From sequence record PP174317.1: a DNA stretch of 64,000 bases, one strand, 5' to 3'. The translations under genes and the position numbers were made by a program. Each line of letters starts with the position of its first letter. Position 1 is the stretch's first letter. Below the pieces are notes generated by a model. It ran no database searches, was not told the origin of the DNA, and worked only from the letters and a program-made list of their open reading frames with translations. Below, piece after piece: positions 3,243-58,326 of the stretch. Origin of the DNA: Acinetobacter phage vB_AbaSt_W16.

Positions 3243-3592
3243 TATATTACTCCTACCAAATAATTTAATATATGTAGTGTCGGTGTAATTCGTAAATCAG
3301 ATTGATATGATTGCATTGCCATAGTATGAACATGTTCAACTGTTGAATTATGTGTACAACGAGCGTTTAATGTTGTTTCAATATTTTTACGAACTTGATC
3401 CACAGTATTAAAATATGTTTTCGGCCTTGGCAAATTTAAGGCTTTTAAAATTGCGGGTTGCCAATTAACAGAGAAGCCTTGTGGCTTCTCTTGAATAATA
3501 AACAAATGTGTTTCTAAACGCTCAAACACTTCATTTGTTTGACTAGATTTCATAACGTTTAACCACCATATCGTAACGAGGATGTTTTGCAC
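3242..3592 (-). CDS. hypothetical protein 116 aa inside gene-43 insert
   Basis: ORF; N-terminus overlaps upstream ORF, true start may be internal Met. Confidence 0.4.
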   Translation of the reverse strand: MQNILVTIWWLNVMKSSQTNEVFERLETHLFIIQEKPQGFSVNWQPAILKALNLPRPKTYFNTVDQVRKNIETTLNARCTHNSTVEHVHTMAMQSYQSDLRITPTLHILNYLVGVI

Positions 3593-3866
3593 GTAATTCT
3601 GATTGAATTTTTACAAAACCATCAAAAATTTCATGTAACAAAGGTACTGTAATTGCTTTATGACTTAATGTTTTAGCCAATTCTAAAATTGCATCGCGAA
3701 TATCTTTACGAACATCATCAGCAAACTGGTTTATAAACATATCATCACAATCTAATAATGCATTACCGTCACGAATTATGCATAAGTATGGATATACATT
3801 AACACTTTGAACTTGTGAGTTATGTGAAATTACGCCAGCATCAAATTCAATAAAATTGGTTTTCAT
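3543..3866 (-). CDS. hypothetical protein 107 aa inside gene-43 insert
   Basis: ORF. Confidence 0.45.
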   Translation of the reverse strand: MKTNFIEFDAGVISHNSQVQSVNVYPYLCIIRDGNALLDCDDMFINQFADDVRKDIRDAILELAKTLSHKAITVPLLHEIFDGFVKIQSELRAKHPRYDMVVKRYEI

Positions 3867-26513: not shown

Positions 26514-26545
26514 TAAAAAAGGGAACTAATTTGTTCCCTTTTTTT
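26514..26545 (-). terminator. bidirectional terminator at 3' end of GIY-YIG gene
   Basis: A7-GGGAAC-taattt-GTTCCC-T7. Confidence 0.7.
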
Positions 26546-26966
26546 CTTTTGCCTTTCGGCGTCCTTCCAACATACGAGTGTGCCAAAATTTATAAAATTC
26601 TGGGTCTTGCAATTTCTCTTGGAGGACTTGTGACGCTTTAATATTGCGTTCACGAATTAATTCAGTTGAATTGGTGGCATTTACATAATCGAACCCACCA
26701 AGGCCACCTAATTTAATGTTATATGAGTTCGGATTTGAGACCAAATCGGCATCGACTAGCTCCTTTTCGTGTTCATACATTGCATCTTGGGTATCGTGAT
26801 ATTTTAGAATTTCTTTTGTGAAATTATGAATACCATATTTTTTAATTGCCCGTTTAATAATTGTACCTGAGCCCATATAACCATCATCTAAATTGGATGT
26901 TTTATGAGCCCCGATATAAAAATGACCATTAACGTTGTTAGTGATCTTGTATGTGTAATAAAACAT
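26526..26966 (-). CDS. GIY-YIG homing endonuclease, short (Seg-like, lacks C-terminal DNA-binding region)
   Basis: YTYKITN..G..YIG..MGSG motif block; paralog of 33174..33836. Confidence 0.75.
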   Translation of the reverse strand: MFYYTYKITNNVNGHFYIGAHKTSNLDDGYMGSGTIIKRAIKKYGIHNFTKEILKYHDTQDAMYEHEKELVDADLVSNPNSYNIKLGGLGGFDYVNATNSTELIRERNIKASQVLQEKLQDPEFYKFWHTRMLEGRRKAKEKKGTN

Positions 26967-29600: not shown

Positions 29601-29831
29601 TTATTGAATTACTGCAGTAGGTGTATAAAAATTAGATAATACACTTAAAATCTTATCTAATTCAACTAATGCATGATATCGATTTTTATAAACTGATCTA
29701 TGTTCGGTACATTCAACTTTGATACCAGTTGAAATATGAGTAACTCGAACACCTCTATCGGGCGTATTAACCCAATTACTATGTTTGCCTACTCTAAATG
29801 TATCAATTCTAATATCAGAAGGTAGTAGCAT
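29601..29831 (-). CDS. hypothetical protein 76 aa
   Basis: ORF. Confidence 0.4.
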   Translation of the reverse strand: MLLPSDIRIDTFRVGKHSNWVNTPDRGVRVTHISTGIKVECTEHRSVYKNRYHALVELDKILSVLSNFYTPTAVIQ

Positions 29832-33108: not shown

Positions 33109-33183
33109 TGGTGGGCCCAGGGAATTTCGAAATCCCAACCTTCAGATTATGAGTCTGCTGCTCCGCCTTTGAGCTATAGGCCC
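33109..33183 (-). tRNA. tRNA-Met or Ile2 (CAU)
   Basis: acceptor GGGCCTA/TGGGCCC, D GCTC-AAAGGCG-GAGC, anticodon loop CTCATAA, CCA encoded. Confidence 0.7.
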
Positions 33184-33836
33184 TTAAACATTTTACGCCC
33201 TTTATTCCAACCTTCTGGAATAGGATCATTTTTATCTATTCGTTTGGATTGTTTCAACTCTAGTGAGTATATCCACATTTTTCCAAACTGAGAATTTTGT
33301 TCAGGTGTTCTTGATTTTGCGGCAATTGACATCTTTTGTTTAGTTTCATCCGAATGCTTTTTACCAGTCCAGTCATACTTCCATGCTTTTAAAGCTGATT
33401 TTTTAAACTCAGGATTGGTCCATAAAGTTTTTTGAATTTTAGACATTTTAGAACAAAACTCTTCATTAAACTTTGCATCGGTATTAAGCTTATTTACAAA
33501 AGTAGATGATCTCTTTTTATTTCTTAATGATATTACATATGCATCAGAATTAATATGATCCCAACCGCCAAAACCACCTAATTTTAAATTGTATGTATCT
33601 TTACGATCTACAAAATCTTGATCGACAATTAAAGCTTCCATTTCAAACATATCTGATTCAGAATCATGATACATCAAAATATCTTTCTTAAAATTTTCAA
33701 TACCATATTTGGCGATTGATCTTTTAAGAATTTTACCGGAACCCATATAATTATCTTCAAGATTGTCAGTCTTGTGAACACCAATATAAATTTTACCATT
33801 TATCAAGTTGGTAATCTTGTACGTATAAAAATGCAT
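33174..33836 (-). CDS. GIY-YIG homing endonuclease (SegB-like, in tRNA cluster)
   Basis: YTYKITN..GKIYIG..MGSG catalytic block plus C-terminal HSDETKQKMS (NUMOD3-like); last codons overlap tRNA 5' end. Confidence 0.8.
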   Translation of the reverse strand: MHFYTYKITNLINGKIYIGVHKTDNLEDNYMGSGKILKRSIAKYGIENFKKDILMYHDSESDMFEMEALIVDQDFVDRKDTYNLKLGGFGGWDHINSDAYVISLRNKKRSSTFVNKLNTDAKFNEEFCSKMSKIQKTLWTNPEFKKSALKAWKYDWTGKKHSDETKQKMSIAAKSRTPEQNSQFGKMWIYSLELKQSKRIDKNDPIPEGWNKGRKMFKGL

Positions 33837-33891
33837 GAATATCCTTAATAATTCGTAACGTTACAAGGATATTTATATTCATGCGAAAAAG

Positions 33892-33964
33892 CCCGCCTGA
33901 CAGGATTCGAACCTGTGTGAGTCGCAATAGAACTACGATGCCTAATCCATTCGGCCACAGACGG
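33892..33964 (-). tRNA. tRNA-Arg (UCU)
   Basis: anticodon arm TCGTA-GTTCTAT-TGCGA, T-arm ACAGG-TTCGAAT-CCTGT; CCA not encoded. Confidence 0.75.
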
Positions 33965-33970
33965 ATAATT

Positions 33971-34044
33971 TGGTCGTTCAGGACGGATTCGAACCGTCAC
34001 ACAGAGTTTTAGGGACTCCTGGTCTACCGTTAACCTACTGAACG
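33971..34044 (-). tRNA. tRNA with anticodon loop CCCUAAA (anticodon reads CUA, amber-suppressor-like; alternative reading UAA/Leu if shifted)
   Basis: perfect acceptor CGTTCAG/CTGAACG, T-arm GACGG-TTCGAAT-CCGTC, anticodon stem GGAGT/ACTCT, CCA encoded. Confidence 0.6.
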
Positions 34045-34376
34045 AAACCCGCTAAAATAAAGCGGGAGTTGATCAAGTTACGCATTATCAAGAGGCTATT
34101 GATCCATGAAAATAAAATTACTTGACCATCCTGGCAGATTTGTTGGAATTCCACCAACTATCTCCATCATATCTAAGATGGCATTCTAATCTTGAACTAT
34201 AATCCACTAGGTCAAAGTAACTTTTAAATGATAACGAATATTGATGGGACTCGAACCACATATCAACCGGGTTTAACAGGCCGGTTATGCTCCAGTATCA
34301 GGCGCAAGCTTAACCAATTAGCTACTGATTCATTATCATTTAAAAGTTACCTCAATTAAGAGGTAACTGAGGTAAT

Positions 34377-34978: not shown

Positions 34979-35434
34979 TTATTTTTCCGGAGACCAATCT
35001 AAATCTAAATCCTCAACATATTCATGCGTTGCACCAATTGAAATTTTAAACTCCAATTTAGGTTTGGCCATTGCACCAATATCATATGCTAATGTAATAT
35101 GAGGCTGATAATCCGGAAAATCATAAGTTGCACCTAATGCTTGTGCATATGCAAAACGAGAGTGCAAATAAGGTGAATCTAGTAATAACACAAGGGCTCG
35201 TTTGCCGTTATGTTCAAATATTTCAAAATCTTTAGCATATGCAATAATACCAAGATTGTCCATTGGTTTAAATGGAACAAACACGCGAGAATAGCATATT
35301 GTAGAATGTAATTTATCGCGAGGTGTTGCATCAAATAACTTTAATTTATCTTGTAAATCGCATAAAGCATCTAATGTGTCATTACTAAATTTGACCGCAG
35401 CATATGTACCACGGTCAAGTTGACTAAATTTCAT
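34979..35434 (-). CDS. 57B: gp57B-like protein
   Basis: 151 aa (T4 152 aa), synteny upstream of gene 1. Confidence 0.55.
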   Translation of the reverse strand: MKFSQLDRGTYAAVKFSNDTLDALCDLQDKLKLFDATPRDKLHSTICYSRVFVPFKPMDNLGIIAYAKDFEIFEHNGKRALVLLLDSPYLHSRFAYAQALGATYDFPDYQPHITLAYDIGAMAKPKLEFKISIGATHEYVEDLDLDWSPEK

Positions 35435-37870: not shown

Positions 37871-38700
37871 ACTTTGGTAGCACCAAAAGGTTTTCCTTTA
37901 GAAACAAAGCGTTGAAGTGGCATTAAAATAACATTAGCCCAATCGGTTGTTTTAATTTCAACAAATCGACCTTTTACATGTGAAGGCAAATATGCCTTAA
38001 TCATTTTATCTGCGCCATTAAAACCTTTTACTTTAGACCAGTCAATCTTTAATTTTGTACTATTGGTTAAAGTTGATGTACTTGAATACTGTTTAAGTAA
38101 ATCTTCTAAAAATTGTTGTCGAGCTTTTGGTGGAATATAATGTAAGTTTAAACCATGAAATAAAGTCGTTCCGGCTACTGATGATTTTGATGTACCTAGA
38201 AAAATAATTAAAGGATACTTATCCCAATATGGTAATGTTTCTTTATGCTTAGCATCATAAATGAAAGCATAAATTTTACCCGGTTGTGGCTTGACCACTT
38301 GGTGTCCGCGGACACCTTTACTTAATGTTTCTTTAAACCATTTTTCAGATTTATTGTTAATGGCCGCGCCGGCATCAGCAATTCTTGTTCGTAACGATTG
38401 TCTAAAGCTATTAATAATAACTGCTTCACGTTCTCTTTTAGTTAGTTTATTTGATGGTTTAGATTTAGCTTGCTCGGCTTCCCATGCTAACTCTATTTGA
38501 TTTTTATATCTAAGCATACTACGAGTAAATGTATTATAAGTAATACCTCGTTCTTCGGCAAACTTTTTAGCAGTTGAGCCTTTTGCTTTTGCTTTATACC
38601 AATCTACGCCAATATTAACCCAAGCTTGTTCTTGCCTAGTTATTTTAGGCTGAAACTTACTTTTTGCTGGTGCAGCTTCTTCTATTTGAAATATTGACAT
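37852..38700 (-). CDS. 2: DNA end-protector protein gp2
   Basis: 282 aa (T4 274), synteny. Confidence 0.7.
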
Positions 38701-38712
38701 ATCTAAACAACC

Positions 38713-39162
38713 TTAAATTTTCATGCCCATCTTACGTAGACCAACTTCAGTTAAAACTCTAAAGGTCACACCTCTTTTTTCAGCCAATTGCTGTGCGGCC
38801 TCCCATTTATTGCAGTTCACATTCCAAGTATAAATTTCTTTTTGAAATCTTTTCTTAGCTGCTGTTGTGAGTTGCGCAGGTGGAACAGGTTCCACTGTTT
38901 CCTTTTTTGGCTTAACTTCAACAAAAAATTCTTTTCCGCCTTCAATTTTAAACCAAAAGTCCATAAAATATCGTCTTTTACGACCATCCATTTGTGAAAA
39001 ATAAGGTATTACAACCTCTTCACTACTCCATGCAATAACTTTATCATTATTGTCTAGCCAGTCCATATAGAACTTTTCCCATGTAGATCGATATTGAATT
39101 TTATCAATTTTACCTCGATATTTATTTTTATTTTTTGGTATAAATCGGCCAGAATATGCCAT
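38713..39162 (-). CDS. 4: head completion protein gp4
   Basis: 149 aa (T4 150), synteny, late promoter upstream. Confidence 0.75.
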   Translation of the reverse strand: MAYSGRFIPKNKNKYRGKIDKIQYRSTWEKFYMDWLDNNDKVIAWSSEEVVIPYFSQMDGRKRRYFMDFWFKIEGGKEFFVEVKPKKETVEPVPPAQLTTAAKKRFQKEIYTWNVNCNKWEAAQQLAEKRGVTFRVLTEVGLRKMGMKI

Positions 39163-56909: not shown

Positions 56910-57503
56910 GTGGATATCAATATTGAAAACATTTTAAAAACATGGTTGCCTGAAGATATTTGTCAGGAATATATTGATATCTTACACAGACCTATAGTAG
57001 GCAAAACAGAAAAACATCATATCTTACCTAGATCTCTTTTTCCTGAACATATTAAAAATCCTAATAATTTAATTGAATTATCAATTTATGATCATCTTGA
57101 AGCACACGAATGTTTAGCAAAAACAAATGAACATAAAATGATTTTAGCTTTTAATTTTATGTTTACAGCTAATTATAGAAGATATTCTACTTTAACTGAA
57201 GATCAAAAATTAAAAGTAAAGGTAAAAAGAACTAAAGCACGACTTGCAATGTCTGATGTTAAATCAGAACAGGGAAAACTGTAAAATCCTTTTTATGGAA
57301 AAACTCATTCTGATGAGACAAAAGCGATAATAAGCTCGCATCATAAAGGCAAAAAATTATCTGCCGATCATATTGCAATTCTTGTTGCTTGTCATAAAGG
57401 TAAACCAAAGCGCAAAGTTAAATGTCCTCATTGTGGTCAATTAATTGCAATACATGCTAAAAACCGACGACACTTTGATAATTGTGCATATAAGGAGAAT
57501 TAA
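56910..57503 (+). pseudogene. HNH homing endonuclease interrupted by in-frame TAA (57282-57284); N-terminal HNH domain + C-terminal NUMOD3 (NPFYGKTHSDETKA) and CPHC zinc finger
   Basis: same reading frame continues after stop for 72 codons with hallmark homing-endonuclease DNA-binding motifs. Confidence 0.6.
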
Positions 57504-58326
57504 AATTTTTGGTCACTGGTACAACTCCTCTCTCCGTCGCTATTGTGTTTTAATGGGTGATTTATTCTCTCATGTACAAGTAATGCGTCGGAGAGAAGGT
57601 GATAAAATAGAATTAATTAAAGTCCCTATTACATTTGCTTCAAAAGAACGCTTTATTATGAAACTAGATGCAAAAACATCAGTTAATAATGGAGATGGTT
57701 CTATGGCAAAAGTGGAAACAATTTTGCCAAGAATGTGCTTAAGCTTGGTAGATTTAGTATATAACCCAACATATAAAACAAATATAACAAACAGAACTAT
57801 CAGGAATCCTGCGAGTAAAACCTCATTAATTTCGCAATATAATCCGGTTCCGGTTAAAATGATTTTTGAGTTAAGTGTTTACACTCGACATCAGGATGAT
57901 ATGTTTCAAATTATTGAACAAATATGGCCATATTTTCAACCACATTTTTCAACCCAAATGAAAGAATTGCATGGCAATGATATTACATTTGATAGAAATA
58001 TCAGAGTTACAATGCAGTCGGTGGCCTTAGATAATCAATTAGAAACAGACAAAACTACACGACGCCGATTGGAAACTGCTTTTATATTTGAAGTTAATGG
58101 GTGGTTATACCCACCTGTTGCTGAAATTGCTGGTGAAATTCGTACAATTTATATTGATCTTTTTGCAAATGAAAAAGAGTTAAATGCCTCAGGACGCTTT
58201 GAATCGGTTGACACTCAAGTATCGCCAGAAGATATAGATTATAATGATTGGGACGGTAATCTTATACAGTCAGTTTCGGCCAATGTTCCTATTCCTGTTG
58301 CACCTGAACCACCTCACCCAAGGTAG
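57445..58326 (+). CDS. 15: tail sheath stabiliser / tail terminator gp15 (probable true start AUU at 57505 after AAGGAG)
   Basis: [12 protein letters not shown]...LMGDLFS... colinear with T4 gp15 from its Met1. Confidence 0.85.

Follow-up and report, generated by a model that had tools for sequence, protein, structure and literature searches.

Can a phage that keeps the standard genetic code carry a working amber suppressor tRNA, and does the gene discussed here encode one? The gene lies in the window, by which we mean the whole stretch of 64,000 nucleotides of Acinetobacter phage vB_AbaSt_W16 (PP174317.1) that was analysed. The original prediction, which gave no strand, described a tRNA whose acceptor has 7 bp, whose T arm is perfect and whose 5-bp anticodon stem closes the loop CCCUAAA, and read its anticodon as CUA preceded by an unusual C33. 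We found that ARAGORN calls eight minus-strand tRNA genes in the window, and that one of them, labelled 'tRNA-Pyl', is a 74-nt tRNA with the anticodon cta (Table 1). This RNA matched the Rfam tRNA family RF00005 over all 71 model positions (59.6 bits, E = 2.5e-11) with zero non-canonical pairs flagged, and its minimum-energy structure in single-sequence folding is the cloverleaf.

Read 5' to 3', the acceptor strand CGUUCAG, which forms 7 bp with CUGAACG, is followed by U8 and A9, by a D arm with the stem GGUU/GACC and the 7-nt loop AACGGUA that contains G18-G19, and by a single A. The anticodon stem GGAGU/ACUCU consists of a G27-U43 wobble and four Watson-Crick pairs, with U31-A39 closing the 7-nt loop. 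A 4-nt variable loop (GUGU), the T arm GACGG-UUCGAAU-CCGUC, the second acceptor strand, A73 and an encoded CCA complete the molecule. The canonical features of an elongator tRNA are present (cloverleaf, G18-G19, 5-bp anticodon stem, 7-nt loop and UUCGAAU T arm), and the elongator-type U33 is absent, its place being taken by C33. Every structural statement of the original prediction therefore agrees with ARAGORN, Rfam and the sequence itself. Its reading of the anticodon agrees with both programs, which place CUA at positions 34-36, with the published tRNAscan-SE call 'Sup (CTA)' and with homologues in sister phages, which have the loop CUCUAAA. The gene is a real, well-formed phage tRNA gene with an anticodon that matches UAG.

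The same structure speaks to two other identities. A shift of one position would make the anticodon UAA (Leu), a register that the original prediction had already disfavoured; a modified C34 reading some other codon would likewise make this a sense tRNA. We consider either very improbable. The molecule is a type I tRNA whose 4-nt variable loop leaves no long variable arm, U31-A39 closes a 7-nt loop, and the relatives fix the register as C-U-CUA-A-A; the variable loop and the register of the homologues together exclude the Leu shift. A pyrrolysine tRNA, as the automatic label has it, would share the CUA anticodon, and that anticodon and the label are all that speaks for it. In tRNAPyl the anticodon stem has 6 bp, the variable loop has 3 nt, and a single nucleotide separates the acceptor stem from the D stem; the D loop is small and lacks G18-G19, and the T loop is non-canonical. 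Every one of these hallmarks is missing from the phage tRNA: its 5-bp anticodon stem, U8-A9, 7-nt D loop with G18-G19, 4-nt variable loop and T loop UUCGAAU are all unlike tRNAPyl. In addition, the gene annotation of about 100 kb of phage Henu6 and of the ZZ1 cluster lists neither pylS nor pylBCD. The name 'tRNA-Pyl' in ARAGORN and GenBank is a naming artefact which the structure rules out, and we give this identity virtually no credence.

Table 1. Features of the tRNA locus, open reading frames in the window that end in TAG, and C33-bearing tRNAs of related phages. Positions refer to the window unless another locus (L) is named.
Feature	Position	Strand	Basis or remark
tRNA gene, anticodon CUA, type I, 74 nt including encoded A73-CCA	33971..34044	-	ARAGORN, Rfam, cloverleaf minimum-energy fold, 74/74 identity to ZZ1 and Henu6
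Anticodon loop CCCUAAA	34008..34014	-	read from sequence; ARAGORN anticodon at sequence index 33
Loop positions	C32 = 34014; C33 = 34013; C34-U35-A36 = 34012-34010; A37 = 34009; A38 = 34008	-	
tRNA-Arg(UCU)	33891..33964	-	ARAGORN; Rfam 48.3 bits; 6 nt downstream of the CUA tRNA
Hairpin CCCGCU-UUAUUUU-AGCGGG, then UUU	34045..34066	-	terminator-like scan; fold -10.1 kcal/mol
Sigma-70-like promoter match TTTTCA-17-GATAAT, 9/12	34084..34112	-	consensus only; upstream of hairpin and tRNA
TAG-ending ORF	3543-3866		+3 codons to next stop
TAG-ending Seg-like GIY-YIG endonuclease	26526-26966		+16 codons to next stop
TAG-ending Seg-like GIY-YIG endonuclease	33174-33836	-	+8 codons to next stop
TAG-ending gp15 tail sheath stabiliser	57454-58326		+2 codons to next stop
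tRNA-Ile(GAU) with C33, phage Acj9	L003 8116-8191		
tRNA-Ile(GAU) with C33, phage 133	L006 11162-11237		
tRNA-Ile(GAU) with C33, phage Acj61	L017 3661-3736		

The gene itself is not new. The window is 99.7% identical over 2 kb to Acinetobacter phage Henu6 and 98% identical to ZZ1 (Straboviridae, Twarogvirinae, Zedzedvirus), and the tRNA is the same in both at all 74 positions. The Henu6 record leaves it unannotated, the ZZ1 record labels it 'tRNA-Pyl; possible suppressor tRNA; anti code:CTA', and the record of PhaR5 has 'tRNA-TERM, amber suppressor'. In the ZZ1 genome paper the identical gene is listed without discussion as ZZ1t008, 'Sup (CTA)', at 76196-76269, from tRNAscan-SE and ARAGORN (PMC4177764), so that the sense anticodon which the original prediction had named as the outcome that would speak against it was not called. 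A 'Sup (CTA)' gene was also reported by tRNAscan-SE in the related phages DLP1 and DLP2 (PMC10051250). The entries under these names in ZZ1, DLP1/2, PhaR5, Maestro and others are the same gene. Our literature search found no functional study of this tRNA, and the papers on these phages that we consulted (including PMC4177764 and PMC10051250) do not discuss C33, covariation across genera or the absence of recoding. The gene and its CUA anticodon are thus already known; what is added here is the covariation across genera, the repeated occurrence of C33, the finding of a standard code and the body of Gln/Trp type.

A CUA tRNA is found at the same place in Zedzedvirus, Hadassahvirus, Lazarusvirus, Acj9 and AB1I1M-1. 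In ZZ1, Maestro, Acj9, Berthold, PhaR5 and AM101 it opens the tRNA cluster, with two small ORFs and 57B/Acb1 lying upstream, and in AB1I1M-1 it comes second in the cluster, behind a tRNA-Trp. With BLAST, the Hadassahvirus type was retrieved from 13 records, 11 of them full-length and two of Acj9, and the Lazarusvirus type from 46 records of Acinetobacter phages. A scan of IMG/VR with a pattern running from the D arm to the anticodon matched only Acj9 and AbTZA1 and added no wider diversity. We found no CUA tRNA in Acj61, Ac42 or 133. The AB1I1M-1 copy (L013 2994-3069), which its record does not annotate, has an extra U bulged in the 3' acceptor strand and could reflect a sequencing error or a damaged gene.

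Covariation was scored by script on a manual structural alignment of seven distinct variants of the CUA tRNA; a MAFFT alignment of the same variants was set aside since it misplaced the gap in the variable loop. The types are 49-79% identical to each other. Even so, standard pairs fill 144 of the 147 stem cells, and compensatory double changes occur in 16 of the 21 stem pairs. C32, C34-U35-A36, A37, A38 and A73 are unchanged in all seven, and position 33 is the sole variable position of the loop, being C in ZZ1/Henu6 and U elsewhere. The relatives share their loop, CUCUAAA, with the classical E. coli suppressors su7 and supF, and A36-A37-A38 is the sequence context in which tRNAs for codons starting with U carry the i6A37 modification. 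Invariance of the loop together with compensation in the stems is the pattern that would be expected of a tRNA selected to decode UAG. The comparison shows that, across genera, purifying selection has acted on the cloverleaf as well as on the anticodon loop.

U33, the nucleotide of the U-turn, is almost universal in tRNAs. Among 101 distinct tRNAs from 13 loci of these phages we found U33 in 97, and the four that lack it are the CUA tRNA studied here and the tRNA-Ile(GAU) of Acj9, 133 and Acj61. Rarity of this kind, the confinement of C33 to the ZZ1/Henu6 lineage among the seven CUA variants, and the existence of related phages without any CUA tRNA would all fit a copy that U33C has recently disabled in an otherwise functional family, with too little time for further decay. 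We think this unlikely. All stems of the ZZ1/Henu6 copy are intact, and where its anticodon stem departs from those of Acj9 and Maestro, the changes are fully compensated. Moreover, tRNA-Ile(GAU) stably keeps C33, in the loop CCGAUAA, across three genera whose copies differ in the T stem by compensated changes. Since the phage group retains C33 in this sense tRNA, C33 is tolerated and is not to be read as inactivating. Bare and colleagues reportedly showed in 1983 that yeast tRNA-Tyr does not need U33 to suppress amber codons in vitro, which would also tell against a disabled copy. C33 may weaken the U-turn, and its most likely effect would be to reduce the efficiency of decoding without abolishing it.

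The change at position 33 could also be seen as a defence against the host. C33 would then protect the tRNA from a host anticodon nuclease, or the tRNA would divert such a nuclease, as a decoy or sink, and would not act as a decoder. We know of no nuclease that targets a CUA tRNA or needs U33 in such a context. The phage does carry the tRNA-repair set PNK, Rnl1 and Rnl2, an anti-CBASS Acb1 is encoded near the cluster, and C32-C33 recurs in tRNA-Ile. Evasion of host tRNases has been proposed for phage tRNAs with changed anticodon loops, in an eLife paper that discusses neither position 33 nor suppressors (PMC10264068). However, a reader of a stop codon replaces no sense decoder, and C34-U35-A36-A37-A38 is invariant across two very different bodies, as selection for decoding predicts. 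We regard an anti-defence role as improbable, and the preferred reading remains a tRNA that decodes UAG.

Bacterial genomes were scanned for the D-arm motif UAGGUUARYGGU(N)AGACY, which gave at least 120 loci, mostly in Alphaproteobacteria; among the matches listed, 109 are tRNAs with the motif, and of these 101 are tRNA-Gln(CUG) and 4 are tRNA-Trp(CCA). These bacterial tRNAs share with the phage tRNA the length of 74 nt, an identical D arm and D loop, the 4-nt variable loop and UUCGAAU in the T loop, at an overall identity of 59-66%. The body of the phage tRNA thus resembles the bacterial tRNA-Gln(CUG) or tRNA-Trp(CCA) type. Global identity to the phages' own tRNAs singled out no isotype (Gln, Ile, Glu and Asn all lie at 70-76%), and BLAST of the Lazarusvirus-type tRNA returned only generic tRNA-Asn and tRNA-Trp genes of unrelated phages.

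Among type I tRNAs, it is precisely those for Gln(CUG) and Trp(CCA) that a single change in the anticodon turns into amber suppressors, supE and su7 respectively, and both of these suppressors insert mainly Gln in E. coli. Given a body of this type and the CUA anticodon, GlnRS would be the most likely synthetase; A73 and U35 make LysRS the alternative. The identity set of E. coli GlnRS comprises a weak 1-72 pair (U1-A72) and G73, and the phage tRNA, with C1-G72 and A73, does not match it. Because C1-G72 and A73 are atypical for GlnRS, the inserted amino acid is uncertain, with Gln ranked as the first candidate and Lys as the second.

We tallied stop codons by a simple tiling of the longest ORFs over about 164 kb of Henu6, made up of the window and two further segments. 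The tally called for by the original prediction came to 152 TAA, 66 TGA and 12 TAG; TAG thus ends about 5% of the ORFs, and a few of the 12 TAG ORFs are spurious. In about 110 kb of Berthold, whose CUA tRNA has U33, the counts were 91 TAA, 50 TGA and 5 TAG. We found no gene split by an in-frame TAG in either set, which indicates a standard genetic code. Henu6 and Berthold use the standard code, with TAG as a rare stop.

This result bears on the idea that the late or lysis genes of the phage read TAG as Gln (code 15), in the manner of crAss-like and Lak phages. A suppressor tRNA, a low GC content (34%) and rare TAG do fit the trajectory described by Borges et al. Against it stand the zero split ORFs in about 164 kb of Henu6 and about 110 kb of Berthold, and the finding that the single case of a TAG followed in frame by the next gene (locus L009, 38922-39212 into 38412-38912) corresponds to an in-frame adjacency rate no higher than that for TAA and TGA. 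Recoding of TAG therefore seems highly improbable. These phages do fit the intermediate stage in the model of Borges et al., in which GC is low, TAG is rare and a suppressor has been acquired but in-frame TAG has not yet appeared.

Signs of adaptation to suppression were sought in read-through lengths and in TAG frequency in Henu6, Berthold and 133, and none was found. In all but one case read-through of TAG adds 2-25 codons before a backup stop. The median extension is 3.5-6 codons after TAG and 5.5-7 after TAA or TGA, which is no clear difference. Phage 133 lacks the CUA tRNA and ends 2 of its 42 ORFs in TAG; since TAG is equally rare there, its depletion is no evidence of adaptation to the suppressor. 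Four ORFs of the window end in TAG (Table 1), among them both GIY-YIG genes, as had been predicted. The suggestion that a suppressor could matter for such genes is only weakly borne out: the GIY-YIG pair is in its favour, and the scarcity of TAG and the short extensions are not. Because the TAG-terminated genes differ between Henu6 and Berthold, no conserved read-through target emerges. The lack of a TAG-terminated gene conserved across genera as a target counts against a suppressor function, as does the fact that Acj61, Ac42 and 133 manage without the tRNA.

A further point against function lies directly next to the gene, where a terminator-like hairpin adjoins the 5' end of the tRNA. Its 6-bp stem is GC-rich, and the hairpin ends 3 nt short of the tRNA. 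It could be the terminator of an upstream unit, or a stabiliser of the 3' end of the upstream RNA after cleavage by RNase P. A sigma-70-like promoter match lies upstream of both, and since the region contains 18 such matches against 10.8 expected from shuffled sequence, this candidate is weak. By analogy with the dimeric tRNA precursors of T4, the CUA tRNA and tRNA-Arg(UCU) are probably made on one precursor.

Several observations concern the surroundings of the tRNA. The 3' end of tRNA-Arg(UCU) reads ...CAGGCGG-GCUUUUU, compared with ...CAGGCGG-ACCA in ZZ1, so that the encoded A73-CCA has been lost beside the endonuclease insertion; a terminator-like stem and U-tract overlap this end. The Seg-like GIY-YIG ORF next to it enters tRNA-Met (33109-33183, minus strand) by 10 nt, and the TAG that stops the ORF is U8-A9-G10 of this tRNA. 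Only 61% of this 2-kb stretch is matched by ZZ1, in which the spacing of tRNA-Cys, tRNA-Met and tRNA-Arg differs. On the other side, the non-coding spacer of 330 nt (34045-34376, minus strand) holds a degenerate tRNA-like element at 34236-34299 within a 15-bp inverted repeat, which in a permissive search scored 16.5 bits against the Rfam tRNA family (E = 0.89, sub-threshold). At the equivalent place Acj9 has a 93-nt call resembling a tRNA-Tyr(GUA). The motif AAAAGTTACTTT stands ahead of the first tRNA in Acj9, Maestro and AB1I1M-1. Older records label the gene at 34979-35434 (minus strand) '57B / RNA ligase'; it is Acb1, an anti-CBASS nuclease (PF23474, E = 1e-49).

The tRNA cluster also encodes, at 29601-29831 on the minus strand, a protein of 76 aa that consists only of the RF-1/GGQ peptidyl-tRNA hydrolase domain (PF00472, E = 3e-10; phrog_20323) and may be a ribosome-rescue factor. 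It occurs in the clusters of ZZ1, Acj9, Berthold, AM101, PhaR5, 133 and Ac42. Since 133 and Ac42 carry the protein without the CUA tRNA, we rejected an obligatory link between the two. Elsewhere in Henu6, the gene of a 'split RNA polymerase ADP-ribosylase' (gp21/gp22, L008 19934-22041) is annotated as two CDS with a 157-nt overlap, which suggests a frameshift rather than a split by a stop codon.

Taken together, our data favour, with some reserve, a functional and probably attenuated amber suppressor that is charged by a host synthetase and belongs to a conserved lineage at the head of the tRNA cluster. The tRNA would be transcribed early, together with tRNA-Arg; in T4, by analogy, tRNAs are cut from multimeric early or middle transcripts. 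RNase P would mature it, and the hairpin would then cap the upstream RNA. Once charged, most likely by GlnRS and alternatively by LysRS, the tRNA would compete with RF1 at UAG. The cost to the phage would be small, a few proteins gaining 2-25 residues before a backup stop. The benefit would probably be one of two: the buffering of amber mutations in an AT-rich genome, a state of 'suppressor acquired, not yet recoded' in the terms of Borges et al., or the read-through of UAG stops of the host or of a competitor.

Comparison with known suppressors sets this tRNA apart. supE is glnV, a tRNA-Gln with CUG changed to CUA, and su7 is trpT, a tRNA-Trp with CCA changed to CUA. The phage tRNA has the type I structure and the CUA anticodon in common with them, its relatives have the loop of su7, and in D arm, length and 4-nt variable loop it agrees with bacterial tRNA-Gln(CUG) and some tRNA-Trp(CCA). 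It differs in having C1-G72 and A73, where supE and su7 have U1-A72/G73 or G73, and in the C33 of the present copy. Furthermore, supE and su7 are laboratory mutant alleles, whereas the phage gene is natural and conserved. The psu suppressors of T4, mutants of its tRNA-Ser, tRNA-Gln and others, resemble it as stop-reading phage tRNAs encoded in a T4-type cluster with a Seg homing endonuclease; they were selected as mutants of sense tRNAs, while here CUA is wild-type and conserved across genera. With the recoded crAss-like and Lak phages (Borges et al.) it shares a phage tRNA(CUA), a low-GC genome and rare TAG. Unlike them, the present phages have no in-frame TAG, use the standard code and grow on a cultured gammaproteobacterial host, and they have no aminoacyl-tRNA synthetase or full-length release factor of their own, only the 76-aa GGQ-domain protein.

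With the gene catalogued already, the interest lies in the underlying biology, and it is modest unless function is demonstrated. One speculative possibility, which we hold only tentatively, is that a standard-code lineage keeps its suppressor as a frozen intermediate of recoding or as a tool for takeover through UAG read-through in the host or in competing elements. C33 of ZZ1/Henu6, like that of the phage tRNA-Ile, would then be adaptive tuning or nuclease evasion and not a defect. If the suppressor is active, amber-based tools and TAG-terminated transgenes would act differently in infected cells, which would matter for the engineering and therapeutic use of A. baumannii phages. The natural C33 variants would provide a test of the dispensability of U33 in vivo. 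An active suppressor in a lytic, easily cultured, standard-code phage of a priority pathogen would be a tractable system for two questions, namely why phages with the standard code carry suppressors and how the recoding of stop codons starts.
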